In this document: positions 605 to 32,000 of the stretch, piece by piece
Layout of the letters: each line of letters begins with the position of its first letter
Position numbering within the stretch: the first letter of the stretch is position 1
Source: Staphylothermus marinus F1
GTDB lineage: Archaea; Thermoproteota; Thermoprotei_A; Sulfolobales; Desulfurococcaceae
Length of the DNA: 32,000 bases
NCBI RefSeq assembly: GCF_000015945.1
Contig: NC_009033.1
Coordinates: 1,380,001 to 1,412,000 of the forward strand
Direction: 5' to 3'
Made by a program: the position numbers and the translations under genes
The notes under the pieces: model-generated
What the model saw: only the letters and a program-made list of their open reading frames with translations
Database searches by the model: none
What the model was told of the DNA's origin: nothing

Positions 605-842
605 ATCAGCCACTAACCTATTATATCCTATGCATATGTTATAGAAATCTTATAAAGCGAATATTATTCTGCGTTTGCCGAAACAACTAAAATATATGGT
701 ACAAACAAACACTCTGTTTCTATATGGATAATACTAGGTTCTATAGATGTGGGATTCGTGTCAAAACATATATGTTTTATATCCCAGATACATTATACTA
801 TTATGAGAAATAGAATATAGTCATTAATAGGTGAGTATTGTT

Positions 843-3800
843 ATGAGAAGGCTGCTCGTAATATTATCATTAATAATTATAGTTGGGCTGATAATGCCCT
901 CTTTATCATTATCAGCCCCAGTAACTGTAGGGAACAAAGATCTTAACAAGTTCACTATTGATCCAAATTGGCAGAACAAGATACCTAAGAAACTATTTGA
1001 CGATGTTTACACAAATGCCAAAATTAAAAAGGCTGCTTTTATGCCGTATGGAATACAAACTGTTAAGAAGATAATGCTGTTCGATTCTAATAGTAGAACA
1101 TTACTGTTGATCGGCGATAATAGTGAAAATACAGTTAGATACATTATTCAAAACACTGAAAAGCTCCTCTACAAGTTCCCATTACTAGGCAACCATGTAA
1201 TTTACTATGTTGTCGCGACCCCCGATCAAGTTGTTAAACTAGCAAAATATCCAGGTATTTATAGAATAACACCTTCTCCACCCATTACTAAGTTGATAAA
1301 ACTAAACAATATGATTAAAAAAGCTGAAGGTGCTGGGTCAAGTTTTGAAATAAAAACTGCTGATAATAATGAGAACGCAACAATAGACACTAATATGGGT
1401 GTTAAATTGATTGGTGCAACTGAGGTTTGGAGAGAATACAATATTACGGGAGAAGGAATAGTTGTCGGAATCGTTGATACAGGAATTGACCTATCTAATC
1501 CAGATTTAGGATTAGACGTTATAGCTAGAGATGACAATGGTACTCCATTATTACTAGCTTATGATAATGGATTAACACTAGTAACTGGTAAAGCTGTAGC
1601 CTATAATGGTACATTAAATACGACAGGGTTAACGGTATTAGCGTTTGACCCATTATACACGCTCGTGTATGGTATACCGGTACTTATAGAAGCACAGTTC
1701 AACTATAACATAACTGTTGGAAACATAACTAGTCAGAGCGGTATATACCGTGTAGGATTAGCTCCATACTTATTCAGTGACACATTAACAGGCTACTATA
1801 TTAGAACATTTGTCCCAGTTGTCTTAGTAGACTCGGAGACTCCTGGCGTATATGATGAAGCATATTTTGACTTATCAACAGCATTCTATGATTTATCAGA
1901 ATACATGAGGTACTTAGAAAACGTGACTCTTGGACACATATATTGGAGAGCACCTGATCCAGCATGGAACGATACAAGCATAACTGATGAAACACCCTTC
2001 GGGCCAGGAAACGAGATTGTTGGAAGAGATTTTGATGGAGACGGTATAATAGACTTCAGTATTGGTACCATAGCTGGATACTATCTTGACTCATACGGGC
2101 TAGCAACACTAACTTATGATCCAACAACTGGTAATATCACATTAGGAACTCCAGGATTATATCCCGGATGGGATTATCAGGGTAGATACCTTGCACTAGT
2201 ATCAGACTTTCACGGTCATGGTACAAGTGTTGCAACAGTAATAGCGTCTCGTGGAAGAGTATTATATGATCTCTACGGAGACGGTAAACTATATAGAATA
2301 ATGGGTGTTGCTCCCGGAGCAAAGATTGCTGGCGGAGACGCATGGCTTCTCGGAAATATTCTAGTATTAGAGGCATGGCTTGCTGGATTCAACATAGTTA
2401 CTGAGGAAGAAGATGGATACGTCTATCTATCTCTAGACCCATTTGGGCCTCATAGAGCAGATATTATTAGTAATAGTTGGGGAAGCATATACATAAACTT
2501 CTGGCTACAACAATTCCCAGGCATAGACTATAGATCATCATTTATGGACGAAATACTAGCAATAAGAAACTACTTAATCGGAGACCATGTAACTATAGTA
2601 TTCGCCGCAGGAAATGAGGGGCCAGGATATAGTAGTAATGGAGCACCTGGAACAGGATTATTAGTCATAACAGCTGGAGCATCAACTCTATGGGATTATA
2701 CAAGAATATATGGTTATCCCGAAGGATACGCTGACGAAGTAATACCATTCAGTAGTAGGGGGCCCACTGGACAAGGGTACCCGAAGCCGGATATAGTAAA
2801 TATTGGAGCATTTGAATGGGCATCAACTAGAACAATAGATGGAAGAGGATATGGTGCGCAACCAGACGTGTTTGGTGGAACAAGTGAAGCAACACCCTAC
2901 ACTAGTGGAACACTAGCACTAGTCTTTCAAGCATATAAAGAAGTATACAATACAACTCCTGATCCTGTAACAGCTAAGATAATATTGAAGAGCTCGGCAA
3001 AAGACATTTGGTACCCGGCATTCAGTCAGGGTAGTGGACGTGTTGATGCATTAAAAGCTGTTGAAACAGTATTTAATAGTGAATGGTTAGCATATGTCTC
3101 AGAAGGCATCCAGGAGGCATTTCTAGAAAACTACTATACAGATTTCGGCCCATATATAGGATATGTATTACCATACTTAGCGGATACAGCTTATTACGGT
3201 GTAGTTAAACCCGGCTCATCCAAGAACTTCACATTAAATATAGTTGGAAATGGAACGGTATCTTTAAGCGCTTGGAATACTGTTCTCTATAAGGAGTATA
3301 CAGTATATGATGGAGTCTATGATTATAGCGGATTACTATTCTTAAAAGTACCTAAATACGCTTACAGCGGCGCCGACTACGTAGAAGTAGTTGTTCAACT
3401 AGAGAACATGACATATCCGCCAGGAGTGTTCTTGAAAACACCGATCGATCCACTGCATGCTATCATTTTAAGCGCTTATGATTGGATAGACTATAATGGC
3501 GATGGACAAATAGGTTATCCAGACGAACTACACTATATTACGTTTGAATATAGAGTGTCAACAGAAGCAGTAGTATCAATATCTGCTCCAATGGAGAAGA
3601 TACATGGTGATCTAGTACTTAGAATAAGACCTGATTATATTAACGTCACACCGGTAAAAATGAAGATAGTTGTTAGATCATTTAAGTATGTGCCTTGCAA
3701 ATTAATGTCATTACCACAAACAGTAGATGTTAATGGAACAGCTTCTATTCCAATAACAATAAATGTGCCAGACAATTTCAGGCCAGGAATATTAGAGGTA

Positions 3801-4880
3801 AGACTAATAGTAGATACGCCGGATAAACGCATTGTTGTACCAGTTTCAATCCTAGTACCTCTAATAGCAGATGAGACAACAACGGCTGTTCTCGGCGGAG
3901 CACGTTCACCGATGAAATATGATCCGTTCGCCATGTATGGATTACCAGATCCAGTCTATGGTGTATGGGAAGGTCAGGATTGGAGAATCCTGCCGGTACT
4001 AGTAACCGATCCATCAATTACCGGATTAATTGTTGTAGCAAGATGGGCTTCTGGCTATGCATCAGACCTATCGTTCCTAACAGTGGCGCCAGGAGGAGTA
4101 TTTACACCTAATGGCTTCCTAAATGTGTTCGCATCATACAAGCTATCCTATGATCTTGGATTAGTATATAATCCAAGCTTATCAGATCAGCTACACGGCA
4201 AGCTAAGGATGTATATACCAGTAAAATGGGCTGAACCGCTTAGGCAAATTCCTATAGCAATTACAGATCTAAGTTATTGGCCTCCAGAACCAGGACTAGC
4301 ATTAATGCAGTACAGCGATAGAATGCCGGAAATCTACGGATTATATAGAATAATATATGGATTCGCAAGTTATAGCGGTAAACTATTAGAGGATAAGCTA
4401 ATGTTTAGGATAATAACAGTTAAGTCCGAGATACAGTATTCAGAACAGTTCAGCTTCAACAACATATCTGTAGGAAACCTATACGTTAAATTCACCGCCG
4501 GATCATATACACCATTCCTATTCGCAGACCTTTATCTGTACACTGAAGGATACGCTACTCCATTAGCTGGGTCAGGCTCAATACTGCCGATAAGCATATT
4601 AGTAAACGGGACAGCAAGTAATCTAGCATATTACCTAGTACTATACGATTATGCATATTATCTAGGAACAAGTCCGACAGGATTATACAGTGAATTCACA
4701 GTTCCAGTAATGATTAATACATCAGCTACAAACGTATTTAATGCAATAGCAGTAATGTACAAGTACTCATGGCATGCCGAAGGCATGTACTGGTTTGACT
4801 TCAACACAGGAGAACCATTAATAATAAGCTATGTGCATCCAGGAATGGCTTCAGCAACACTAAATATATCAAATACTTAA
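843..4880 (+). CDS. Secreted subtilisin-like (peptidase S8) serine protease, giant pyrolysin/STABLE-like form
   Basis: Catalytic triad motifs appear in subtilase order: GIVDTGID (Asp codon 1476-1478), HGHGTSVA (His codon 2217-2219), GGTSEATPY (Ser codon 2883-2885). The N-terminus MRRLLVILSLIIIVGLIMPSLSLSAP is a signal peptide. GGTGA (830-834) sits 8 nt before ATG 843, so I prefer 843 over the GTG at 831 used by the ORF track. There are many N-x-S/T sequons. Confidence 0.9.
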   Translation: MRRLLVILSLIIIVGLIMPSLSLSAPVTVGNKDLNKFTIDPNWQNKIPKKLFDDVYTNAKIKKAAFMPYGIQTVKKIMLFDSNSRTLLLIGDNSENTVRYIIQNTEKLLYKFPLLGNHVIYYVVATPDQVVKLAKYPGIYRITPSPPITKLIKLNNMIKKAEGAGSSFEIKTADNNENATIDTNMGVKLIGATEVWREYNITGEGIVVGIVDTGIDLSNPDLGLDVIARDDNGTPLLLAYDNGLTLVTGKAVAYNGTLNTTGLTVLAFDPLYTLVYGIPVLIEAQFNYNITVGNITSQSGIYRVGLAPYLFSDTLTGYYIRTFVPVVLVDSETPGVYDEAYFDLSTAFYDLSEYMRYLENVTLGHIYWRAPDPAWNDTSITDETPFGPGNEIVGRDFDGDGIIDFSIGTIAGYYLDSYGLATLTYDPTTGNITLGTPGLYPGWDYQGRYLALVSDFHGHGTSVATVIASRGRVLYDLYGDGKLYRIMGVAPGAKIAGGDAWLLGNILVLEAWLAGFNIVTEEEDGYVYLSLDPFGPHRADIISNSWGSIYINFWLQQFPGIDYRSSFMDEILAIRNYLIGDHVTIVFAAGNEGPGYSSNGAPGTGLLVITAGASTLWDYTRIYGYPEGYADEVIPFSSRGPTGQGYPKPDIVNIGAFEWASTRTIDGRGYGAQPDVFGGTSEATPYTSGTLALVFQAYKEVYNTTPDPVTAKIILKSSAKDIWYPAFSQGSGRVDALKAVETVFNSEWLAYVSEGIQEAFLENYYTDFGPYIGYVLPYLADTAYYGVVKPGSSKNFTLNIVGNGTVSLSAWNTVLYKEYTVYDGVYDYSGLLFLKVPKYAYSGADYVEVVVQLENMTYPPGVFLKTPIDPLHAIILSAYDWIDYNGDGQIGYPDELHYITFEYRVSTEAVVSISAPMEKIHGDLVLRIRPDYINVTPVKMKIVVRSFKYVPCKLMSLPQTVDVNGTASIPITINVPDNFRPGILEVRLIVDTPDKRIVVPVSILVPLIADETTTAVLGGARSPMKYDPFAMYGLPDPVYGVWEGQDWRILPVLVTDPSITGLIVVARWASGYASDLSFLTVAPGGVFTPNGFLNVFASYKLSYDLGLVYNPSLSDQLHGKLRMYIPVKWAEPLRQIPIAITDLSYWPPEPGLALMQYSDRMPEIYGLYRIIYGFASYSGKLLEDKLMFRIITVKSEIQYSEQFSFNNISVGNLYVKFTAGSYTPFLFADLYLYTEGYATPLAGSGSILPISILVNGTASNLAYYLVLYDYAYYLGTSPTGLYSEFTVPVMINTSATNVFNAIAVMYKYSWHAEGMYWFDFNTGEPLIISYVHPGMASATLNISNT

Positions 4881-6279: not shown

Positions 6280-7158
6280 ATGGATGAAATAAGAATTAGG
6301 AAAGAAAGCATTTATAAATCAATAAGTTTAGCAATAATTTTAGCGATCTCCTTATCTGCTCTAGTATATTCATATATGAATGATTACTATATAGGAACGT
6401 ACTCAATAGATCAGTTAAACAACATATATATTTATCCTAAACAACATATCGAGATTCTTTCATATAATATTGCTCAGGATAAATACGTGTTTATAGGATT
6501 AAATGGATTCGTGCTTAATACTTATATTTTTAGCAATGACAAAAATACTGTAATAACGATCAAGGCTAGCGGACTAGATCTTTATGTCCTCTTCATAGCG
6601 GTTGTATCACTATTCATAACTTATAAGTTAAATAAGGAATTTTTATGGAATTCTAAAAGAATATATTTTATTCTAATCCTCATTCTAATAATTACTTCCA
6701 ATATTTTGTTATTTCCTTACGTTGATATTGCCAAAGCCCCTCTACAAGATGCTAAGATAGTTTCCCTTAATAAGCCGTTGGAAACTAAGAATAATATCGG
6801 CATCATCGATTTATTGAGAAACAATGCTCTCATATATGTCAAGTCAAACAATAGTTTCTCGATCGCTATTTTACAACTAGTCTCTAGTAATTACACTATA
6901 CTAGCTCTTAACGTTAAAGAATATACCGGGTACATTAATGTTTCTAATGAAACTTTTGTCGTCTTAATTCCTACGAAGTCTTCTATAAGTGATTTTAATT
7001 TCACCTATAGAAGAGTAGAATTTGTTGACGTGGGAAATGAGGTTTTAAAAGCTTTGTTTACATTAATGCCATCCATTGTGTTGCTTATTGGAAGTGTTTT
7101 CTTAATTGTACTGCGAAAGAAGATAATTAAAGAAGCTATGCCTCAACAATCTGGATAA
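6280..7158 (+). CDS. Hypothetical membrane protein (N-terminal TM, central TM pair, C-terminal TM)
   Basis: 292-codon ORF with AGGTG (6266-6270) 9 nt before the ATG. Hydrophobic segments: ISLAIILAISLSALVY, LYVLFIAVVSLFITY, IYFILILILIITSNILLF, LFTLMPSIVLLIGSVFLIVL. No family recognised. Confidence 0.6.
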   Translation: MDEIRIRKESIYKSISLAIILAISLSALVYSYMNDYYIGTYSIDQLNNIYIYPKQHIEILSYNIAQDKYVFIGLNGFVLNTYIFSNDKNTVITIKASGLDLYVLFIAVVSLFITYKLNKEFLWNSKRIYFILILILIITSNILLFPYVDIAKAPLQDAKIVSLNKPLETKNNIGIIDLLRNNALIYVKSNNSFSIAILQLVSSNYTILALNVKEYTGYINVSNETFVVLIPTKSSISDFNFTYRRVEFVDVGNEVLKALFTLMPSIVLLIGSVFLIVLRKKIIKEAMPQQSG

Positions 7159-8467
7159 TATTCTTTGTATTAAATCTTGATACAGTGAAATATTTTACCG
7201 ATATATTCTTTAAACTCTTATTGTCACCCATAATCATTACTGATATAAGTCTTGCATTAGCTTTTCTTAGATTGTAGGTCACTAATTGTTCAGCTATTCT
7301 ATCAACACCATCTGTTATTATTATGATATCGCTTGTCTCTCTTACACTGCCTGTTCTAATATCATTACATGCAGTAATAATTGCTTTAGAAATATCTGTT
7401 CCACCGCTTCCTCTAACCCTAGCGATATAATCTATGAGTTTCAATACATTGCTAGCCCGAGGTCTTCTACTTATTTTTGCCAGTGGATACGGTATGCTAT
7501 CAAAGAATCTAAAATAAAATTCCCTATGTTCTCTAACGGCTCTCATATACAAGCTTAATGCTACAGCTTTCGCCCAAGTCATCTTTATTCCATCCATTGA
7601 ACCCGATTTATCCAGTAATACATATAGGGGTCCCTTACCTTGACTAAGCATTTTCTGGTATAGAAGCAATCTATTCTCGAGGAATCTTAGATAGAATAAC
7701 TCATCTGGTAATGCGAGAGCTGAAGGAACTATTCGCTCAATATCTTTGCCTAACTCATAACCCATTAATTCTCCATGTTTAAATCTTTGTTTTCTCTCAG
7801 GTATATTTATGTTCCAAGGCTTAATTCCTGCTAGTATTTCCAGTATTTTTCTTACTTCAACATTTCTAGCCAGCCTAATGAGTTCTGGACCATATTCTTC
7901 ATACGCCATAATACTAACTGTTCCAGGACGTTCACCCTCTATAAGCATTCTCAGTTTTTTAGCATTTTCAACATCTCTCATAGTATTAGCAATTGCTTTC
8001 TCTACATTTCTCCTAATAGCTTTTTCATCTTCTCTACCTTCTTGTTCTCCTCTTCTATTACTTGTTGCATTGCCAAACGATCTTTCATTTTCAAGTTGTT
8101 TGAACTCTGAAATAAATATACTAGCAGCTATACTACTCATTAAGCTATCAACTACTGTTTTACTTCTTATATCATGTATGAAACTAGATTTTAGAAGGGA
8201 GTCTATTACTTTGTAATGATATCTTTTATTCTTCGAGATACTGTCTCGCGGCTTCAATATCGGCATCGGTAAATAGAATACGTAGAACAAGTCTATTGCT
8301 AGAGAAATAGGTATTTTTAATTCTTTCTCAGCTATTAAACTAGCTATTTTCGTTACTTTACTACCCCTATATTTAACAACAGGATCATCATAGCTTATAC
8401 TACTTAAGACCCCTATTAATTCGTCTTTATCTGTTGATTTAGTTTTTTGGCTGAAATATTTATTCAT
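7136..8467 (-). CDS. von Willebrand factor A (VWA) domain protein, ViaA-like partner of the adjacent AAA+ ATPase
   Basis: MIDAS motif DKSGS (7598-7612 on the minus strand, in LYVLLDKSGSMDG). Further VWA blocks are GSGGTDISKAI and IIIITDGVD. It starts 13 nt downstream of the AAA+ gene on the same strand. Confidence 0.8.
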   Translation of the reverse strand: MNKYFSQKTKSTDKDELIGVLSSISYDDPVVKYRGSKVTKIASLIAEKELKIPISLAIDLFYVFYLPMPILKPRDSISKNKRYHYKVIDSLLKSSFIHDIRSKTVVDSLMSSIAASIFISEFKQLENERSFGNATSNRRGEQEGREDEKAIRRNVEKAIANTMRDVENAKKLRMLIEGERPGTVSIMAYEEYGPELIRLARNVEVRKILEILAGIKPWNINIPERKQRFKHGELMGYELGKDIERIVPSALALPDELFYLRFLENRLLLYQKMLSQGKGPLYVLLDKSGSMDGIKMTWAKAVALSLYMRAVREHREFYFRFFDSIPYPLAKISRRPRASNVLKLIDYIARVRGSGGTDISKAIITACNDIRTGSVRETSDIIIITDGVDRIAEQLVTYNLRKANARLISVMIMGDNKSLKNISVKYFTVSRFNTKNIIQIVEA

Positions 8468-8480
8468 AAGTGGTCCCAGG

Positions 8481-9626
8481 TTAGATCATGAATTTTCTTT
8501 TAACCATATCAATTACTTCATTAACTTCAGATAATACATCAAGCCCTCTCTGCCTAACAACTTCATCGCTTGTCTCCTCAGCTATTCTCCTAACTCTTTC
8601 CCGTACAGCTTCAAAGCTTCTCAAGTAATCAACTAGTCTTGGATCAAAATCAGTTACTTTCATGATATAATTTTTGGCTTCTCTAGCATTTGCCTCAATT
8701 TCAGCAAGTTCCCTTAAGTGTTTTTCAGTAGCTTTAATCTCATCTAGTAGTATAGCATTTGCTTGTTCCATTTCTTCCATATCATGTGGAGCAATGTGTT
8801 TTAACACGAATAAGTCTTCTTCTCTAGCACTCATTCTACGATCTAGAAGTGCAGAGGCTGCAATAGCTTTCAATGCTTTTCCTTTACGCCTATCAGTGAT
8901 ATGTATTCCTTGATCCTCGAAGATAGCGTATAGTTTTAATAGTTTTTCTTTAATTGGTTCAAGATTTACCTCATAAAGTATTTTATTTAGCATTCTAACA
9001 TCGTTCATCGATAAAATAGGTTCGGCGTGCTCATAAAGTCCTGATTCTATTTTCCAGGATGCTTCTAATAATTCTGCCCATTTATCCTCACTAATGGGTT
9101 TAACGAAGTGCCTATATAGGAACCTATCGTATAGTGCTTGAAGCTCGGGCTCGTCTGGAACATTATTACTTGCAGCTATCATTGTCCATAAAGGAACTTT
9201 TATCTCATTATATCCATCATATACTATTCTCTCATTCATTATTGTGAGGAACATGTTCAGTATTGCTGAATTAGCATTAAATATTTCATCAATAAAAGCT
9301 ATCTCAGCTTCTGGAAGTTTATTACGAGTTATACGTACGTATTTACCCTGTTTTAACGCATTAATGTCAAGAGGACCAAATAGTTCATCCGGCTCAGTGA
9401 ATTTTGTTAATAAATATTTGAAGAACTTAGCATTGATAAGTTCGGCGGCTCTCCTAGCTAATGCTGACTTAGCAGTGCCAGGCTCACCTATTAAGACGAC
9501 GTGTTCGCCCGATATAATAGCTAATGCTATTACTTTAGCTTCTTCTTCCCTACCAACAAATGGTCTCGCCAATTCTTCGACGAACTTATGTGCTTTATGT
9601 AATAGTTGTGTAAATCCTTGTTCCAT
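8481..9626 (-). CDS. MoxR-family AAA+ ATPase, RavA-like
   Basis: Walker A GEPGTAKS (9465-9488, minus strand) and Walker B IAFIDEIFNAN. The N-terminal 130 aa align by eye with E. coli RavA (..GESVFLLGPPGIAKS.., ..FGPLSIQALK.., ..[30 protein letters not shown]..). Confidence 0.85.
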   Translation of the reverse strand: MEQGFTQLLHKAHKFVEELARPFVGREEEAKVIALAIISGEHVVLIGEPGTAKSALARRAAELINAKFFKYLLTKFTEPDELFGPLDINALKQGKYVRITRNKLPEAEIAFIDEIFNANSAILNMFLTIMNERIVYDGYNEIKVPLWTMIAASNNVPDEPELQALYDRFLYRHFVKPISEDKWAELLEASWKIESGLYEHAEPILSMNDVRMLNKILYEVNLEPIKEKLLKLYAIFEDQGIHITDRRKGKALKAIAASALLDRRMSAREEDLFVLKHIAPHDMEEMEQANAILLDEIKATEKHLRELAEIEANAREAKNYIMKVTDFDPRLVDYLRSFEAVRERVRRIAEETSDEVVRQRGLDVLSEVNEVIDMVKRKFMI

Positions 9627-24917: not shown

Positions 24918-26063
24918 TTAGTCGAGAGGTGAATAACCAGTTTTAAGCATTTTCGTATATATATTATGTGTTTCCTTCATCTTGAATAATTCAACAACTA
25001 TGCATCCATCTTCTCGTTTCTCAACAACTCTGAATATGAAGTCCATTCCTATAGATTCTGCGTACTCTATATATTTTGAGAGATCATCTTCTGAGGGAAA
25101 CACTAATGTATATTTTGATGCAATAATTTCTCCATTAGCTCTCTTCTTCAAAGAATTAATTGCAGGTTCTAGAATTGCTCTTCCCAGTTTTAACGCTATT
25201 CTATCTAGCTCAGTATTATTCCAGTCATATTCATATCCTTGCGCTATTAGCCTTACTATTCTAGAAAATAGATATCCTCTTCCTTCATCAAATGGGTACC
25301 TCATCCCTTCCCAGATATCTCTGATATTAATATATATGGTAGTATATTTTAGAGGTGGAACACGTTGATAGGGGTCTTTCAATACTACTCCTTCTCTTCT
25401 TTCCTTCTCTAGCCTGTTAATAATTGTTTTTAACCTATCAATATCCCTTTTATTAATAATATCTAGTATTCTAACCGTTTTCAAACTATACTTCTCGGCG
25501 ATTTCATCCCTAATTCTCAGTGGCTGTAATTTATCTTTTTTCATAGTATCAAATATGAAGTAATCGAATCCTCTAGCTTCGGGATAATCATATATTACAT
25601 AGGGATTTTCTGTTCCAACTACTTCACCCACTAAAATTGTGTCTGGGTATTCTTGATATGCTAACTTAATGTTTTTAGAGTATAGTTTTCTTATTCTAGC
25701 TGTTGTATATGGACAAATATATCCCCCACGTGTGATCGCATATATGTTGTTCATGTAATAAACTACTCTGACATTATAGCCGTTCATTTTCTCCTCTACA
25801 ACGACATTATCTATCATGTGTTTAGATACTCCTTCAATAAATGCTAGTCTTTGAATACTAGGGTATCCGTGAACTATTAATGGCTCTTCTCCAAGTAGGA
25901 TTGTTGTTCCTTCACGGTATCCTAGAAGATCCCTTCTGAAGACAACATAGTTTAGTTCGCCATACTTCATTAATCTAATGGATCTACCTATATGTTTTGA
26001 GAGTTTCTCGTATTCAATACCGAGAGCATCACTTAATTTATTTACAAGCTCATTTTCGTCCAC
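24918..26063 (-). CDS. ATP-dependent RNA ligase, archaeal Rnl3 (Pab1020-like) family
   Basis: Nucleotidyltransferase motif I VVVEEKMNGYNVRV (Lys codon 25788-25790). Further blocks are TRGGYICPYTT, LVGEVVG.ENPY and GVVLKD. The ORF is open up to ATG 26156, but that adds a junk-like hydrophobic 31 aa and leaves 11 nt to the divergent speE. GTG 26061-26063 has AAAATAAT at -32..-25 and GGAGG at about -12, so I prefer it. Confidence 0.8.
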   Translation of the reverse strand: MDENELVNKLSDALGIEYEKLSKHIGRSIRLMKYGELNYVVFRRDLLGYREGTTILLGEEPLIVHGYPSIQRLAFIEGVSKHMIDNVVVEEKMNGYNVRVVYYMNNIYAITRGGYICPYTTARIRKLYSKNIKLAYQEYPDTILVGEVVGTENPYVIYDYPEARGFDYFIFDTMKKDKLQPLRIRDEIAEKYSLKTVRILDIINKRDIDRLKTIINRLEKERREGVVLKDPYQRVPPLKYTTIYINIRDIWEGMRYPFDEGRGYLFSRIVRLIAQGYEYDWNNTELDRIALKLGRAILEPAINSLKKRANGEIIASKYTLVFPSEDDLSKYIEYAESIGMDFIFRVVEKREDGCIVVELFKMKETHNIYTKMLKTGYSPLD

Positions 26064-26167
26064 AGCAAACCCTCCATAAACCCATACATTATTTTCTAGC
26101 AAGGATATTAATAATATGTTCAGTAATGAGAATAAAATATGTAAAACATGTATCATGGGTGGATATT

Positions 26168-27028
26168 ATGGAAGACTACATTATTGGCGGAATATATGTT
26201 ATAGAGCCTACTAGCCCTAAGCTAGCGTCTTTGTTCAAAGCCAAAAAAATATTTGTAACAGAAAAGACTCCTTACCAAGAAATAATGCTTGCAGAAATAG
26301 AAGATTTTGGAAGAGCATTAATCATAGATAATCTTATTCAGAGTACTGAGAGAGACGAATATATTTATCACGAATCATTAGTGCACCCAGCTATGGTTCT
26401 ACATCCAAATCCCAGAAAAGTATTAATCATAGGAGGAGGAGAGGGGGCAACTCTTAGAGAAGTACTTAAACATAAAACTGTTGAGGAAGCTGTAATGGTG
26501 GATATTGATGAGAAAGTTGTTGAGTTCTCGAAAAAATATCTCGAATATATGCATCAGGGAAGCTTCTACGATAAGAGAGCAAAAGTAATCATAATGGATG
26601 GGCAAAAATATGTTAGAGAATCTCCGGATAACTACTACGACGTAGTAATTCTTGATCTAACAGATCCATACGCAGGAGAAGCAGCTAAACCATTGTATTC
26701 CGAAAAGTTTTACCGAGAAATACATAGAATACTTAGAGAGGATGGAGTAGTAGTTACTCAAGCGGGTAATAGTTTCTATTATAGAGAAGCATATGATTAT
26801 GTATATAATAATTTGTCCAAGGTATTTCCTCAAGTAGTGGAGTACTGGGTGTGGATTCCAAGCTTCACATATACATGCAACTTTATTTTAGGATCAAAAA
26901 TATATGACCCAAGAAAAATGAGTGAAGAAGAAGTAGACAAAATACTTTCGGATAGAGGAGTGAAAACAAAGTTCTTAAACGGTAAAAGATTCATTGGCTT
27001 ATTGAAGCTAGGCATTATTAAGGGATAG
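26168..27028 (+). CDS. speE: Spermidine synthase / polyamine aminopropyltransferase
   Basis: VLIIGGGEGATLREVLKH (SAM-fold glycine loop), VDIDEKVVEF and DVVILDLTDP. Start chosen at ATG 26168 (MEDYIIGG). The ORF-track extension back to 25997 is antisense to the RNA ligase gene. Confidence 0.9.
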   Translation: MEDYIIGGIYVIEPTSPKLASLFKAKKIFVTEKTPYQEIMLAEIEDFGRALIIDNLIQSTERDEYIYHESLVHPAMVLHPNPRKVLIIGGGEGATLREVLKHKTVEEAVMVDIDEKVVEFSKKYLEYMHQGSFYDKRAKVIIMDGQKYVRESPDNYYDVVILDLTDPYAGEAAKPLYSEKFYREIHRILREDGVVVTQAGNSFYYREAYDYVYNNLSKVFPQVVEYWVWIPSFTYTCNFILGSKIYDPRKMSEEEVDKILSDRGVKTKFLNGKRFIGLLKLGIIKG

Positions 27029-27049
27029 ATTTAGAAGTGATGTATTCAA

Positions 27050-27769
27050 ATGAAGAAGATTATCGAATTAGTCGGGGTCAAAAAACTATATAGAGTAGGA
27101 GAAGTAGTCACGTGGGGTCTGAGAGGAGTAAATTTAACCGTATACGGGGGAGAATTTGTATCAATAATGGGTCCAAGCGGTTCAGGTAAAACAACCCTAC
27201 TAAACATGATTGGATTACTAGACCACCCCACTGAAGGAAAAATACTAATAGACGGCGTAGATGTTTCAAAACTAAAATCAAAACAACTAGCTCGCATACG
27301 TAATATGAAAATAGGTTTTGTATTTCAAACATTTAACCTCATTAATAGATTAACAGTTCTCGAAAATATCGAGTTACCTTTAATCGTTAGGAAGATCCCT
27401 AGGAAAAAAAGAATAGAAAAAGTTAAAAAAGCATTATTAATGGCTGGTGGAGATCTATCATGGCTACCTAAACATCCAAACCAGCTTAGCGGTGGACAAC
27501 AACAGAGAGTAGCTATTGCTAGAGCACTAGTAGGTGATCCAGAGATAATATTAGCGGATGAACCCACTGGAAACCTAGATAGAAAATCAGCTAAGTCAAT
27601 TGTTAAAACATTTATAGATCTTAATAGTAGAGGACAAACAATCATAGTGGTAACACATGATCCCGAAGTAGCTAATTGTACACAGAAAATATATATTTTA
27701 AGAGATGGAATAATCGTAGGCGAAGAAAAACCCATGCCTGAAAAATGTATTATTCAAACTGTAAAGTGA
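27050..27769 (+). CDS. ABC transporter ATP-binding protein, MacB/LolD-type (COG1136-like)
   Basis: Walker A GPSGSGKTTLLN, Q-loop FVFQTFNL, signature LSGGQQQRVAIARAL, Walker B ILADEPTGNLD, H-loop VVTHD. Confidence 0.9.
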   Translation: MKKIIELVGVKKLYRVGEVVTWGLRGVNLTVYGGEFVSIMGPSGSGKTTLLNMIGLLDHPTEGKILIDGVDVSKLKSKQLARIRNMKIGFVFQTFNLINRLTVLENIELPLIVRKIPRKKRIEKVKKALLMAGGDLSWLPKHPNQLSGGQQQRVAIARALVGDPEIILADEPTGNLDRKSAKSIVKTFIDLNSRGQTIIVVTHDPEVANCTQKIYILRDGIIVGEEKPMPEKCIIQTVK

Positions 27770-27845
27770 GAAATTAATTAACTTGATATAGAATATATCA
27801 TTACCGATACAATAAGATAGTAAAGAAATATTAGGCGGGATAAAA

Positions 27846-30800
27846 ATGAAATTAGTGTTCAGACTTATTTCAATTATTATACTAATATCGATATTTCTCT
27901 CAATGTATCCTATATTTCATATCGGAAACACTACTAACAGTCTATATAGTTATTTTGAAATTAAAAACGTAAAATTTAGATCATCCACGGGCGGAGATGT
28001 TTACCCAGGAAGTAGAAACGCTGTCTTGCTCGTAGATGCTATGTATTATTCTAATTCAACGATTAATGCTTCAAATATTTATTCATGCATCGATCTTCCA
28101 GAAGGATTTTCCGTAGTTACTAGTAGTTGTAGTATTGCTAGAGATTTTGATGGGAACATTGTTGAGAAGGTTTCGCCAGGCGAAATGGTTAGGTTTCAAT
28201 TCGGCGTAGATGTAGATAAAAATGTTTCTCCAGGAACATACTCGTTTAACATAAATATAACTTATACATTCAACAATACATTAATGTCGGAGCAACATGT
28301 AGTCGTTGTTGAAGTAAAACCATATCCTCGCTTATCTATATCGTTTAGAGACTCCTATTTTACACCATACGGGTATCCGGGTGCTAACCCCGTAACCTTG
28401 GTTATAGAGCTTGAAAACACTGGTAATTCTACAATTAGGTATGCTGATGTAAAAGTTGAATTACCAAGCTTTATTGAAATAAATAATCCGAGAACATCTA
28501 TATCAAATATTCCTCCAAATCAAGTATTCACTATATCACTAAATAATCTAGCAATATCACCTAATGCTAGGCCAGGAAAATATGTTGGCTACCTAAATAT
28601 TTCTGCACAAATGATAACTAGTGATGGAGTAGTATATAATGATAATATTATGTTCCAATTCAACATAACTATTGAGAGAGCTCCTCCATATAACTACTCC
28701 ATACTAGATTATGGATTATCAACAAACCATCCATTACCAGGCAGTAGGAATACAAGATTCTACGTGTTAATGCAAAGCATTGATGCATCAACTATTGATA
28801 CATTAGTGGCAAAAGTAACTATTAATAACGGGTATTTTATGAATGGCTCCAATACCGAGGTAGTAGTGATTAGAGGTCCAATCAACTATGGAGACACCTT
28901 CACCCTTACAACAGACCCTATAAGTATAATTAATAGTGCTTCACATATTATTGTAGAGATAATGTTCAATGGGTTAATAGTTGATAATGGTGCTTCCTAC
29001 TGGGTTAACTGGTCGAATACCTTCTATGTCAAACTAAACTATACGCTTCCAAAAATAGATGTATTCGATGTCTACTGGAGTAATAACAAGGTTTACCCAG
29101 GCTCGATTGATCAAGATCTGAGGGTTATAATGGTAAATAATGATTACTCAGACGTGGTTGATGGAGTAGCAATATTGAGTTTTGAAGAAGATATTTTCTA
29201 TCCTCAATCAATAGTGGTTGATAATGTAGTAATTCCAAGCAATTCTTATACTACACTAACATTTTCCCCGATAGACATATCAAATAATGCTAGACCTGGA
29301 AACTATACTGCGAAGCTATCATTATTTCTCCTATTAAGAAATAATGATGGATCATATTCTAATATTGTAATGAATTATACATTAATAATACAAGTTAGCG
29401 ACCCATATATCGACCCCATAAATATATTGAATTATCATTGGGGAGGAGGAAAAGCATATTCCGGAGAAAAAGGAGCTTCGCTTAATATTTTGGAGCAAGT
29501 AGTTACCGATACAACTATTGATAAAATATATGCAGTAATATATTATCCCAATGGAATAACCTCGGAGAATACCGGTGATAACTATGATACATATATTGTT
29601 AATAACCCATTAACATACGGAGATATTTTCAGCCTTAACTATAATGCTATAAATATCTCAAGCAACATTACTGGAACAACATATATTGTACTAAAACAAT
29701 CAATGCTGGTAACAATTGATGGAAGCCAAACTTGGCTTAACAAGACATATGTTATCATATTAACTATATCCGAACCAGCATTAAACATTACATTAATAGA
29801 TAAGGGATGGACAACAGATACTATATCTCCATCCGCTGACAATGTTGGATTATATTTAACATTTCAAAGCTTCTCACAAGATACCATACGCGAAGTTATT
29901 TTCAAGCTATACTTGCCAAACAAGGTATATGGTCCTAATGGTGAAAAAGAAATAATTAGAGTTATAAATAACAATATTAATTATCTCCAAGCATTCACAG
30001 TTACATTCAACGGTTTAAACCTCGATAATATTGAATCTGATCATCTAGTATTTAACCTCTCAATCAATGCAGTCATGGAGCATGAGAACGGTGTATATGA
30101 AGCTAATAAGTCTATAACAGTATTTTTAAGTATTAATTCACCATTTAAACCCTTGATAGTATTGGGTGTGAGAACAACTTATCAAGGACAACCATCACCT
30201 CTGCTACCAAACAGTAATGGTGAAGCCATTAGTTTTGTATTATTAAACAATTTCAGAAACACAATTAGCTCCCTAAAAGCCGAACTGGAATCTCCTAGTG
30301 GAATAGAAGTTATTGGTTCTAATACTCAGTTCATAAATAATTTGCTAAGTGGATCCTCCACAACAATATCATATATGTTAAGAGTAGGGAATATTACACC
30401 AGGAACTTATACGTTAAAACTGAATATTGAAATGATCATTGATAGTAATGGTGCTTTAGTAAGACAGGATCAAACAATCTATTATAATATAACAATAGAA
30501 GATCCTTCAAAATATGTTTCTAGAATACTGCTTATTAGAAGCTATTGGGGAACAACCACTCCCTCCACCATATATCCTGGTGATAAGAAAGCACCATTAA
30601 CACTAACATTTCTCAACATAGGTGAATACACAGTATATGCTTTTAGATCAAAGTTGATACCCATGGATAAATCAATAAAAGTTTTAAATAATGATCAAGT
30701 TTGCAACACGCTAGCTGTTGGTTCAACATGTACTGTTACATTTTATTTAGATCTACAAAATACATCTGCTGGAATGAAAGAGTTTATTGTTAAAACTAGT

Positions 30801-32000
30801 TATCTCCAAGGAATATATGGATCATACAATAACATAGAGAAAGAATATAATATAAAATTAGATCTGCCAAGCTTTAATGCACAAATTAATAATAGTAGTA
30901 TATACTTGGTTTCAAGTGGTTGGAATAATAATTGGCCTGTATATCCTAGATCGGAGAAAACAATTTACACAGTTACACTAGCTAATCTCGAACCATACAG
31001 TATAGGCTCAATAGTAGTGAAAATATTGCCTCCAAACAATATAGTACCCCACAACACATATGATGATACATACTATGTTGAGGGACCAATACCATCTCTA
31101 CAAACATTCACTGCATCATTTACACTTGATGTTGGAGACATTGATCCAGGAATATATGATGCAAAAATCATTGTTGATTATTATGTGTATGCAAATAATG
31201 GAGGATATAGGAAATCCATAATTATTCCAGTAGTATTAGAAGTAAAGGATCCCGAAAAAGCATTAACAACTATACAGTATGGTTGGCTCGGAGGCCAGCC
31301 CCCATTAGTAATTCATGGTGCAACCTATTACTTCATTATTAGAAACAATGAGATACCATCAATGAATGGCATATACTTTACTGGAGTACTACCAGAGAAT
31401 ATAACATACTCAATAACGGACACTAGACTAGTAAATGTGACGCCACAAGTAATAATACCATCTATTCAGGCATCACAGAATCTTCAACAACAACTAGCTA
31501 CATTTCTTATACAACAATCAATGCCTTCGAGACAATCGGCTGGCTTAGGAGATTATTTATCGTTTACACTAAAACTAAACCTTAACTTGTCAAAACCCTA
31601 TTATTCCAAAATACATGGAGCAATAAACTTCATCGATCACTGGGGCAGTGTACATGTAATCAATATATCAATACCCTTCATAGTTGTAGGTAAACCATTA
31701 GAAATAGATATTCTACCTAAAACTCCTCTAATAGTGTTCGATAATGGTACTGGATACATTGATTTAGTCATCGATAACCCAAGTAAAAACATTATTTATG
31801 ATACTTACATACTACTTATACCAGCATCCATGAACGCTATACCGCTAGACAATATTAAATACATAGGCACAATTCTAAGCCAAACAAACAAAACAATTAG
31901 ATACATGATAATCTATAATCCAGTATCTATAAGCTATGGAGGAGCATCAGTATCTTCTCTAACAGTCTCGTTTAGAGCCAACATAATATATAGAGATATT
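27846..32000 (+). CDS. Giant secreted or surface-anchored protein of tandem CARDB/COG1361-like (S-layer-domain-like) beta-sandwich modules; 3' end outside the window
   Basis: Not in the supplied ORF track. An in-frame TAA lies at 27813-27815 and the first ATG at 27846. I read every codon to base 32000 and found no stop (1385 codons). N-terminal signal/anchor MKLVFRLISIIILISIFLSMYPIF. Recurring module motifs are VYPGS near module starts and (S/T/D)PG.Y / NARPG(K/N)Y near module ends. N-x-S/T sequons are very dense. Confidence 0.85.
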   Translation, partial: MKLVFRLISIIILISIFLSMYPIFHIGNTTNSLYSYFEIKNVKFRSSTGGDVYPGSRNAVLLVDAMYYSNSTINASNIYSCIDLPEGFSVVTSSCSIARDFDGNIVEKVSPGEMVRFQFGVDVDKNVSPGTYSFNINITYTFNNTLMSEQHVVVVEVKPYPRLSISFRDSYFTPYGYPGANPVTLVIELENTGNSTIRYADVKVELPSFIEINNPRTSISNIPPNQVFTISLNNLAISPNARPGKYVGYLNISAQMITSDGVVYNDNIMFQFNITIERAPPYNYSILDYGLSTNHPLPGSRNTRFYVLMQSIDASTIDTLVAKVTINNGYFMNGSNTEVVVIRGPINYGDTFTLTTDPISIINSASHIIVEIMFNGLIVDNGASYWVNWSNTFYVKLNYTLPKIDVFDVYWSNNKVYPGSIDQDLRVIMVNNDYSDVVDGVAILSFEEDIFYPQSIVVDNVVIPSNSYTTLTFSPIDISNNARPGNYTAKLSLFLLLRNNDGSYSNIVMNYTLIIQVSDPYIDPINILNYHWGGGKAYSGEKGASLNILEQVVTDTTIDKIYAVIYYPNGITSENTGDNYDTYIVNNPLTYGDIFSLNYNAINISSNITGTTYIVLKQSMLVTIDGSQTWLNKTYVIILTISEPALNITLIDKGWTTDTISPSADNVGLYLTFQSFSQDTIREVIFKLYLPNKVYGPNGEKEIIRVINNNINYLQAFTVTFNGLNLDNIESDHLVFNLSINAVMEHENGVYEANKSITVFLSINSPFKPLIVLGVRTTYQGQPSPLLPNSNGEAISFVLLNNFRNTISSLKAELESPSGIEVIGSNTQFINNLLSGSSTTISYMLRVGNITPGTYTLKLNIEMIIDSNGALVRQDQTIYYNITIEDPSKYVSRILLIRSYWGTTTPSTIYPGDKKAPLTLTFLNIGEYTVYAFRSKLIPMDKSIKVLNNDQVCNTLAVGSTCTVTFYLDLQNTSAGMKEFIVKTSYLQGIYGSYNNIEKEYNIKLDLPSFNAQINNSSIYLVSSGWNNNWPVYPRSEKTIYTVTLANLEPYSIGSIVVKILPPNNIVPHNTYDDTYYVEGPIPSLQTFTASFTLDVGDIDPGIYDAKIIVDYYVYANNGGYRKSIIIPVVLEVKDPEKALTTIQYGWLGGQPPLVIHGATYYFIIRNNEIPSMNGIYFTGVLPENITYSITDTRLVNVTPQVIIPSIQASQNLQQQLATFLIQQSMPSRQSAGLGDYLSFTLKLNLNLSKPYYSKIHGAINFIDHWGSVHVINISIPFIVVGKPLEIDILPKTPLIVFDNGTGYIDLVIDNPSKNIIYDTYILLIPASMNAIPLDNIKYIGTILSQTNKTIRYMIIYNPVSISYGGASVSSLTVSFRANIIYRDI

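Follow-up and report, generated by a model that had tools for sequence, protein, structure and literature searches.

The DNA analysed here (the window) is a stretch of 32,000 nt from the archaeon Staphylothermus marinus F1, positions 1,380,001–1,412,000 of the forward strand of NC_009033.1. Close to its 3' end lies the gene for an ATP-binding cassette (ABC) ATPase, followed by the gene for a giant surface protein that is still open at the window's last base. A public contig of 8.2 kb that carries the giant protein (L003), and that shows 0 mismatches in 4499 nt to window positions 27502–32000, was used to extend the window past base 32000, with its positions carried onto the window numbering (window-equivalent coordinates). 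On this extended sequence the next gene encodes a permease with MacB_PCD and FtsX domains, and the window holds the front two-thirds of an ATPase–giant–FtsX/MacB permease module, laid out as follows.

27050–27769, + strand: ABC ATPase, nucleotide-binding subunit of the MacB/LolD/MJ0796 type, 239 aa (open reading frame (ORF), Pfam, NCBIfam and PDB matches)
27770–27845, + strand: ATPase–giant spacer, 76 nt, with a Shine-Dalgarno (SD)-like AGGCGGGAT at 27833–27841 and without a T-run terminator
27846–32000, + strand: giant surface protein, first 1384 of 1552 codons, open to the window's last base
27846–27929, + strand: signal peptide of the giant, aa 1–28
27933–28322, + strand: giant domain D1, tandem β-sandwich domain
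28323–28676, + strand: giant D2, tandem β-sandwich domain
28677–29036, + strand: giant D3, tandem β-sandwich domain
29037–29402, + strand: giant D4, tandem β-sandwich domain
29403–29768, + strand: giant D5, tandem β-sandwich domain
29769–30137, + strand: giant D6, tandem β-sandwich domain
30138–30506, + strand: giant D7, tandem β-sandwich domain
30507–30881, + strand: giant D8, tandem β-sandwich domain
30882–31247, + strand: giant D9, tandem β-sandwich domain
31248–31628, + strand: giant D10, tandem β-sandwich domain
31467–31520, + strand: Gln-rich segment QASQNLQQQLATFLIQQS inside D10, giant aa 1208–1225
from 31629, + strand: giant D11, tandem β-sandwich domain, running out of the window
past the window end, + strand: giant D12, Thr/Pro linker, transmembrane (TM) helix (aa ~1518–1542) and basic tail (from L003 and the full-length protein P0001)
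window-equivalent 32510 (TTG) or 32519 (ATG) to 33733, + strand: MacB_PCD + FtsX permease, 404–407 aa (L003)

Family membership was tested against Pfam cut-offs, NCBIfam equivalog cut-offs, sequence matches in the PDB and Foldseek searches with AlphaFold2 (AF2) models. The ATPase matches Pfam ABC_tran (1.1e-35) with intact Walker A (aa 41), LSGG (aa 146), Walker B (aa 166) and H-loop (aa 201) motifs, and the Q-loop is intact too. Its top NCBIfam models are DarD, MacB, LolD and FtsE, every one of them scoring under its equivalog cut-off; LolD reaches 208 bits against a threshold of 307.75, and FtsE 201.8 bits against 264.85. The nearest solved structures by PDB sequence search are MJ0796 (2.2e-64), then Spr0694 (5xu1_A), LolD and MacB. 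The first of these, from Methanocaldococcus, gave the classic dimer structures of an ABC ATPase, 1F3O and 1L2T. By its motifs and matches the protein is predicted to be a catalytically intact subunit of the MacB/LolD class. The original prediction, made from the window sequence, had placed an ATPase of this class at 27050–27769; the coordinates are correct and the class is backed by the NCBIfam and PDB matches.

The same prediction had noted that no permease was in view. This is literally true within the window but not for the genome, where the MacB_PCD + FtsX gene directly follows the giant gene, and the apparent ATPase without a permease is a window-edge effect. Nor does the giant stand there instead of a permease, as had been proposed, since its gene lies between those for the ATPase and the permease and does not take the permease's place. 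The permease begins 5 nt (TTG) or 14 nt (ATG) after the giant stop codon, with the ATG being used in Staphylothermus hellenicus. In Pfam it matches MacB_PCD (6.7e-19, 69.4 bits against a cut-off of 27, profile positions 2–206 of 207) and FtsX (PF02687; 1.2e-17, 64.5 bits against a cut-off of 25.5). Hydropathy places TM1 at 18–43, TM2 at 265–295, TM3 at ~308–345 and TM4 at 364–393, and an extracytoplasmic MacB-type domain of 220 aa lies between TM1 and TM2.

The AF2 model of the permease (pLDDT, the predicted local distance difference test, of 80) gives a Foldseek TM-score of 0.76 to A. baumannii MacB, with LolE as the top match and Spr0695, YtrF, HrtB, YbbP and BceB also found, and it superposes on the isolated periplasmic domains of LolE, YknZ, MacB and LolC. 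The best curated family is lolCE (1.2e-28), at 100 bits against a cut-off of 362, and FtsX_Gpos is matched at 30 bits against a cut-off of 225; none of the MacB, LolCDE and FtsEX equivalog cut-offs is reached by the proteins of the module. The intact ATPase motifs, the four TM helices with an FtsX domain, and the MacB_PCD (Porter/Sabre) domain are together the attributes of a type VII ABC system.

The giant gene is, as originally described, the next one 76 nt past the ATPase gene, with its start confirmed at the ATG at 27846. In S. hellenicus this spacer measures 75 nt, and the two genes are predicted to be co-transcribed. A run of 1384 stop-free codons in DNA of ~33% G+C is not chance, and the stop codon is found at window-equivalent 32502–32504, 504 nt beyond the window end, where L003 completes the frame. 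A protein search returned the full-length product of 1552 aa (P0001), 100% identical to the window's partial protein. The N-terminal hydrophobic segment resembles a cleavable signal peptide in most homologs, and the C terminus consists, by hydropathy, of a Thr/Pro/Ser/Gln-rich linker, the single TM helix and the basic tail; the protein has 35 N-x-S/T sequons and only 4 Cys. These features establish a predicted topology in which the giant is exported by its signal peptide, carries its domains outside the cell and is held at the membrane by its C-terminal TM helix.

To compare the domains with each other, twelve block profiles (~122 aa each) built from 40 homologs were aligned with hhalign, which gave 88–100% probability among D1–D10 and 92% for both D11–D12 and D11–D8, while BLASTP of the giant against itself detected no internal repeats. 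The description of the giant as a repeat protein thus holds at the profile level and fails at the pairwise level. Pfam NPCBM_assoc (NEW3) is a borderline match (28.2 bits against a cut-off of 24.4), and CARDB is recorded on some homologs; as an exported protein with tandem CARDB/NPCBM_assoc-like β-sandwiches, the giant belongs to the COG1361/CARDB-NEW3 type. The AF2 model was made on a full-length homolog of 1167 aa (P0024) and not on the S. marinus protein. It shows all-β tandem domains and a C-terminal helix with a mean pLDDT of 83.9, and the counterpart of the Gln-rich segment (residues 823–846 of this homolog) is modelled with low confidence as helical, the sole helical insertion in the β-domain array. 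Foldseek with this model returned only tandem arrays of immunoglobulin (Ig)-like or macroglobulin (MG) domains at TM-scores of 0.1–0.2. No sequence relatives of the giant were found in the PDB, and neither domain searches nor Foldseek revealed an enzymatic or channel-like domain.

Homologs of the giant fall into length classes of ~900–1000, 1170–1200, 1540–1590, 1680 and 1919 aa, with a domain number of ~7–15 in relatives and 12 in S. marinus; in the class of 1170–1200 aa some ~365 aa are missing from the centre, the equivalent of three domains. Conservation peaks in D1–D2 and in the membrane-proximal D12 (identity 0.45–0.47) and falls to 0.30–0.40 in the middle, while an F-L and a Y-R pair in the TM helix are nearly invariant among homologs.

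Two identities considered for the giant were rejected: it is not tetrabrachion, as it has no RHCC/coiled-coil motif and no PDB sequence match, and it is not an α2-macroglobulin-like thioester protein, as the C-x-E-Q motif is missing. Because the surface-layer (S-layer) protein of S. marinus is a different one, tetrabrachion (PMC2678158), and because COG1361 proteins are also present in archaea without S-layers (PMC10354927), the COG1361 'S-layer domain' label on the giant is nominal. By its sequence, the giant is unlikely to form an S-layer itself.

Synteny was scored with hidden Markov models (HMMs) built for all three proteins and run on six-frame translations of 74 loci (67 after removing duplicates; 66 had been added by a metagenome scan). 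The FtsX-type permease sought downstream of the giant is the very next gene in S. marinus, in S. hellenicus and in 62/62 non-redundant loci with downstream DNA in view, and an ABC ATPase of the same subfamily and on the same strand lies directly 5' of the giant in 41 of 49 non-redundant loci. From the giant stop to the permease start the median distance is −4 nt (range −26 to +24), with overlap in 39 of 63 pairs, whereas the ATPase stop and giant start are a median of 64 nt apart (range −4 to 204); by these distances, the giant and permease genes would form the invariant, translationally coupled core of the module.

Conserved gene order, which had been named as a check, is found across Desulfurococcales, Ignisphaera and related metagenome-assembled genomes (MAGs). 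It is kept, with giants of only ~30% identity, in two genomes from GTDB (one MAG each of Ignisphaera and Thermoproteota), and it is seen again in S. hellenicus, in Thermogladius and on contigs with 1678-aa and 1198-aa versions of the giant; a MAG labelled Sulfolobales has the giant and then the permease, with no adjacent ATPase. Between S. hellenicus and S. marinus the permease is 93% and the giant 83% identical, and in distant relatives the values are 50–65% and 27–37%, by which measure the permease has changed far more slowly than the giant. At the level of sequence, then, the case for a strongly conserved archaeal envelope module is solid. On one 1.3-Mb contig of Desulfurococcus amylolyticus there are two distinct permease paralogues (P0064 and P0070), so that some genomes carry at least 2 permease paralogues of the module family, possibly as two modules.

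The synteny bears directly on whether the three genes belong together at all. The giant gene, as one for an S-layer protein or an adhesin, could have come to lie by chance inside an ordinary drug-efflux ABC operon, or the ATPase could be part of a polyamine transporter linked to speE, and database names such as 'S-layer domain protein' would suit the former, as moderate scores of the ATPase with PotA-type models, of a size seen with any ABC ATPase, would suit the latter. Such incidental adjacency is contradicted by permease neighbourhood in 62/62 loci and overlapping codons, kept among proteins down to 22–30% identity, and it agrees poorly with a giant that lacks the coiled-coil stalk of tetrabrachion and with COG1361 proteins in S-layer-less archaea (PMC10354927). 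Polyamine import or export is moreover not a known activity of MacB-type pumps (PMC5985334). The remaining argument for it is the gene upstream, for which the features are as follows.

26162–27028, + strand: speE-like aminopropyltransferase (Pfam Spermine_synth 4.7e-57; NCBIfam PRK00811 274.6 bits against a cut-off of 260), ending with TAG at 27026–27028
27029–27049, + strand: speE–ATPase spacer, 21 nt, with an SD-like AGTGAT at 27036–27041, 8 nt before the ATG

That the ATPase gene lies 21 nt behind speE with AGTGA in the gap can be read directly from the sequence, as had been pointed out, and AGTGAT may act as a ribosome-binding site. The spacer has the same 21-nt length in S. hellenicus, with 19 of 21 bases identical, and this kept spacing would suit a link of the ABC pump to speE. 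Among the loci compared, however, S. marinus and S. hellenicus are the only species in which speE adjoins the module; 3 Thermogladius-like loci have it 4.7 kb upstream, with other genes between, and the remaining related loci do not have it. As the adjacency is limited to Staphylothermus, any co-transcription of speE with the ABC genes is, on this comparison, a local accident of gene order; speE precedes the ATPase gene, may share a transcript with it and does not belong to the conserved set of module genes. A functional tie of the module to speE or polyamines was rejected on the same genus-specific adjacency, and we regard incidental adjacency of the three genes as very improbable. Divergent from speE lies a gene for a Pab1020-type RNA ligase (24918–26156, − strand; RNA_ligase 2.2e-27 and Lig_C 1.2e-18), in the same layout in S. 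hellenicus.

The motor, giant and permease genes are strictly linked, and their products would form one complex. That they make up a three-component type VII (MacB/Lol-like) ABC system in which the giant is the partner is quite likely, and for the explanation as a whole, a three-gene type VII ABC module of Thermoproteota with the giant as its working partner, we put the probability at about 0.6. Partner logic fits because the TM helix and D12 are conserved, the coupling to the permease gene is invariant, the middle is variable in length and the tip is conserved. MacB-type transporters have no transmembrane substrate path and turn cytoplasmic ATP hydrolysis into movement of the domain outside (PMC5985334), and in MacAB and Spr0693-0695 a partner anchored by a single TM helix stimulates the ATPase, for which this helix is required, and spans the periplasm-like zone (PMC5985334, PMC5768738). 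By analogy, the giant would be an obligate extracytoplasmic partner of the pump rather than its cargo, standing in for the MacA-type adaptor. Through D12 and its TM helix it would bind to the permease, as MacA docks on MacB through its own membrane-proximal domain and TM helix. On the cytoplasmic side, binding and hydrolysis of ATP would move the outer domain of the permease (mechanotransmission), and the moving domain would do work on or along the giant between the membrane and the S-layer. With its 7–15 domains, the giant would then be a length-adjustable counterpart of the MacA/Spr0693 adaptor.

As to what such a machine does, it might expel membrane-active toxic compounds or peptides, or hold them off, from the outer leaflet or the pseudo-periplasm, with a PadR-type repressor controlling expression of the module. 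About half of the 74 loci have a PadR-like gene at the flank of the module, which either runs divergently from the ATPase gene or lies just behind the permease gene. Protective expulsion or target protection is favoured because of this PadR/MatE context and because of the ATPase families matched, namely DarD, bacteriocin exporters and MacB; a protective-efflux role, the likeliest of those considered, is put forward tentatively.

The Lol-type matches lend themselves to another reading, in which the giant is the cargo and a Lol-like extractor frees, inserts, unfolds or positions its C-terminal anchor, so that the protein is set free or passed on to the S-layer or cell surface, in the assembly or shedding of a surface fibre or adhesin. 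The curated matches (lolCE for the permease at 1.2e-28, LolD for the ATPase) and the top Foldseek match of the permease, LolE, would all be expected of such an extractor, the strict 1:1 pairing of giant and permease with overlapping codons suits a dedicated substrate, its conserved D12 and TM helix could serve for recognition, and the conserved distal D1–D2 suggest a function at the far tip, e.g. binding. The known Lol systems, however, extract the acyl chains of lipoproteins and not a hydrophobic helix with a basic stop-transfer tail; there is one permease gene rather than a LolC/LolE pair, no LolA/LolB-like carrier is encoded in the loci examined, and the Lol equivalog cut-offs are missed widely (100 against 362 bits). 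The PadR/MatE context also suits stress or efflux better than surface assembly, and we consider it unlikely that the giant is handled as cargo.

A third possibility draws on the variable length of the giant. The pump might flip the conformation of the giant in the manner of FtsEX and so control adhesion, cell–cell contact, the activation of a surface hydrolase or the architecture of the S-layer and pseudo-periplasm, with no transport of small molecules. Type VII FtsEX works in this way on extracytoplasmic partners (PMC5985334), the giant has no enzymatic or channel-like domain of its own, its variable domain number (lengths of 1167–1919 aa) suggests a spacer or ruler, and a gene for an M28 peptidase follows the permease gene in 5–6 loci. 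Against this stand the unmet FtsE and FtsX cut-offs and a permease with the full MacB-type domain instead of the reduced one of FtsX. The M28, MoxR and VWA proteins encoded nearby are probably cytoplasmic and are limited to a minority of the loci, and the module has no conserved companion gene that would qualify as an effector. A mechanical switch of this kind appears less likely still than the handling of the giant as cargo.

Several points weigh against a motor with the giant as its working partner. An adjacent ATPase is lacking in 8 of 49 loci: a subclade (L007, L010, L012, L046, L070 and L072, to which L014 and L073, with their upstream DNA not in view, also belong) has no ATPase within 8 kb upstream, and its permease gene is directly followed by one for a conserved cytoplasmic protein of 250 aa that matches no Pfam family; in the other exceptions, two loci, the ATPase is encoded on the opposite strand at a distance of 2.6 kb. 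The association with PadR holds in about half and not in all of the loci, and the Staphylothermus PadR, paired divergently with MatE, may regulate only MatE. The best match of the permease to lolCE fits extraction equally well. Arrays of β-sandwiches are not known as ducts like the hexamers of MacA, and the likeness to an adaptor may extend to docking only. Finally, the geometry between domains in the AF2 model of the giant homolog is uncertain (predicted TM-score, pTM, of 0.38), and because of this any statement on the length or reach of the giant is a guess.

Several neighbours of the module were also considered. In S. marinus a divergent pair of MatE efflux (− strand) and PadR (+ strand) genes lies right behind the permease (L003 6241–8135, window-equivalent 33742–35636) and is kept in S. 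hellenicus. A MoxR + VWA pair together with M28 follows the permease directly in L001, L002, L013, L021 and L022, and in L041, L044, L047 and L058 it is found a short way 5' of the module. M28, MoxR and VWA were rejected as core parts, being found in a minority of loci and having no TM or signal segments; these neighbours, as predicted from their sequences, are probably cytoplasmic and unrelated to the module. As M28 and the VWA proteins have no TM or signal segments, a functional link of the MoxR + VWA pair to the module is doubtful. The window itself has a gene pair for a VWA protein (7139–8467, − strand) and a bpMoxR AAA ATPase (8484–9626, − strand). Further upstream it encodes a subtilase of 1349 aa (831–4880, + strand; Peptidase_S8 1.9e-28), the catalytic match of which is stretched over aa 207–724, implying that large insertions are present in the predicted catalytic domain; this protein might be the S-layer-bound STABLE protease of S. 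marinus. PADLOC returned only generic ABC/LolE-TM matches on the module, giving no backing for a known defence system.

Public annotations name the three products "ABC transporter ATP-binding protein", "S-layer domain protein/hypothetical protein" and "ABC transporter permease", and no literature describing or testing the ATPase–giant–permease module was found, searches on related topics giving passing mentions only; a review of the MacB family is without any mention of archaea (PMC5985334). The finding is so far a lead from annotation rather than a mechanism. Type VII ABC machines (MacB, LolCDE, FtsEX and BceAB) have been studied almost only in bacteria, and here the same motor is always paired with an entirely different kind of partner, in an envelope of membrane and S-layer. 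If the giant is a working partner, the module offers an entry to the ways in which molecules are moved or repelled across the pseudo-periplasm of archaea and to the role of the widespread 'COG1361 S-layer domain' proteins, and it would give a biological context to MJ0796, one of the founding structural models of ABC ATPase dimerization. If the giant is a dedicated cargo, this would be a new type of system for handling surface proteins. As a speculative extension, Desulfurococcales and Ignisphaera may own a tripartite-like machine in which a MacB motor is permanently coupled, by way of the conserved C-terminal TM helix and the membrane-proximal domain, to a giant of 7–15 domains that crosses the pseudo-periplasm as far as the S-layer, and in which ATP-driven mechanotransmission along or beside the giant expels toxins or remodels the envelope, as an independent, non-homologous solution to the problem solved by MacA and TolC, with MJ0796 working in a reduced version of it.

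Among known systems, the closest in layout are Spr0693-Spr0694-Spr0695 of S. pneumoniae (5XU0/5XU1, PMC5768738) and YknXYZ of Bacillus, which, like the module, have separate genes for the ATPase and a four-TM permease of the MacB type. Spr0693-0695 supplies the second-best PDB sequence match of the ATPase and the best one of the permease. Both systems also work in a monoderm envelope with an extracytoplasmic partner anchored by a single TM helix and encoded in the same operon, and Spr0693-0695 has been proposed to clear antimicrobial compounds from a periplasm-like zone (PMC5768738), the role considered here for the module. They differ in the partner itself. In the bacterial systems it is a membrane-fusion protein of the HlyD type with lipoyl, β-barrel and hairpin parts, whereas the S. 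marinus partner has 1552 aa in 12 CARDB/NEW3-like sandwiches, is anchored C-terminally rather than N-terminally, is encoded between the ATPase and permease genes, and resides in an archaeal S-layer envelope.

With MacAB-TolC the module has in common the permease fold (TM-score 0.76), the MacB_PCD domain, the class of ATPase and the expected mechanotransmission, but its ATPase and permease are unfused and MacA, TolC and an outer membrane are lacking. Neither a membrane-fusion protein (MFP) adaptor gene of the HlyD/MacA type nor a TolC-like gene was found in the loci examined, and S. marinus, as an archaeon, has no outer membrane. LolCDE resembles the module in the topology and fold of the permease and in the strong match of LolD to the ATPase; it differs in that the module has a single permease gene, scores far under the equivalog cut-offs, has no LolA/LolB and offers a candidate client that is TM-anchored and not lipid-anchored. 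Bacterial α2-macroglobulin ECAM, hydin and mastigoneme, tandem MG/Ig-like arrays to which the giant was matched by Foldseek, show a generic likeness, at TM-scores of 0.1–0.2, with no thioester or bait region and no sequence similarity. Because there is no MFP and no TolC and the cut-offs are unmet, the module is best described, from its predicted components, as a type VII ABC system with a giant, C-terminally anchored partner of tandem β-sandwiches that falls outside the definitions of MacAB-TolC, LolCDE and FtsEX.

A related archaeal arrangement is the MJ0796-type locus, which is mentioned in PMC4158269 and PMC5898192. In Methanocaldococcus sp. FS406-22 (L075, 4955–10233) the MJ0796 orthologue shares its locus with a CARDB protein of 507 aa, a MacB_PCD/FtsX permease and a TPR protein; two small two-TM proteins flank the ATPase, and SpoIIM- and Yip1-like genes are interleaved. 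The CARDB protein has a signal peptide, β domains, a C-terminal TM helix and a basic tail, the topology of the giant, yet it is only 507 aa long and is encoded two genes upstream of the ATPase and not between ATPase and permease. Because both components are present in this locus, the link between a C-terminally anchored CARDB protein and a MacB-type ABC system reaches, more loosely, into Euryarchaeota, where MJ0796 itself would belong to a related, reduced module, with the giant insert between motor and permease genes as the form of Thermoproteota.

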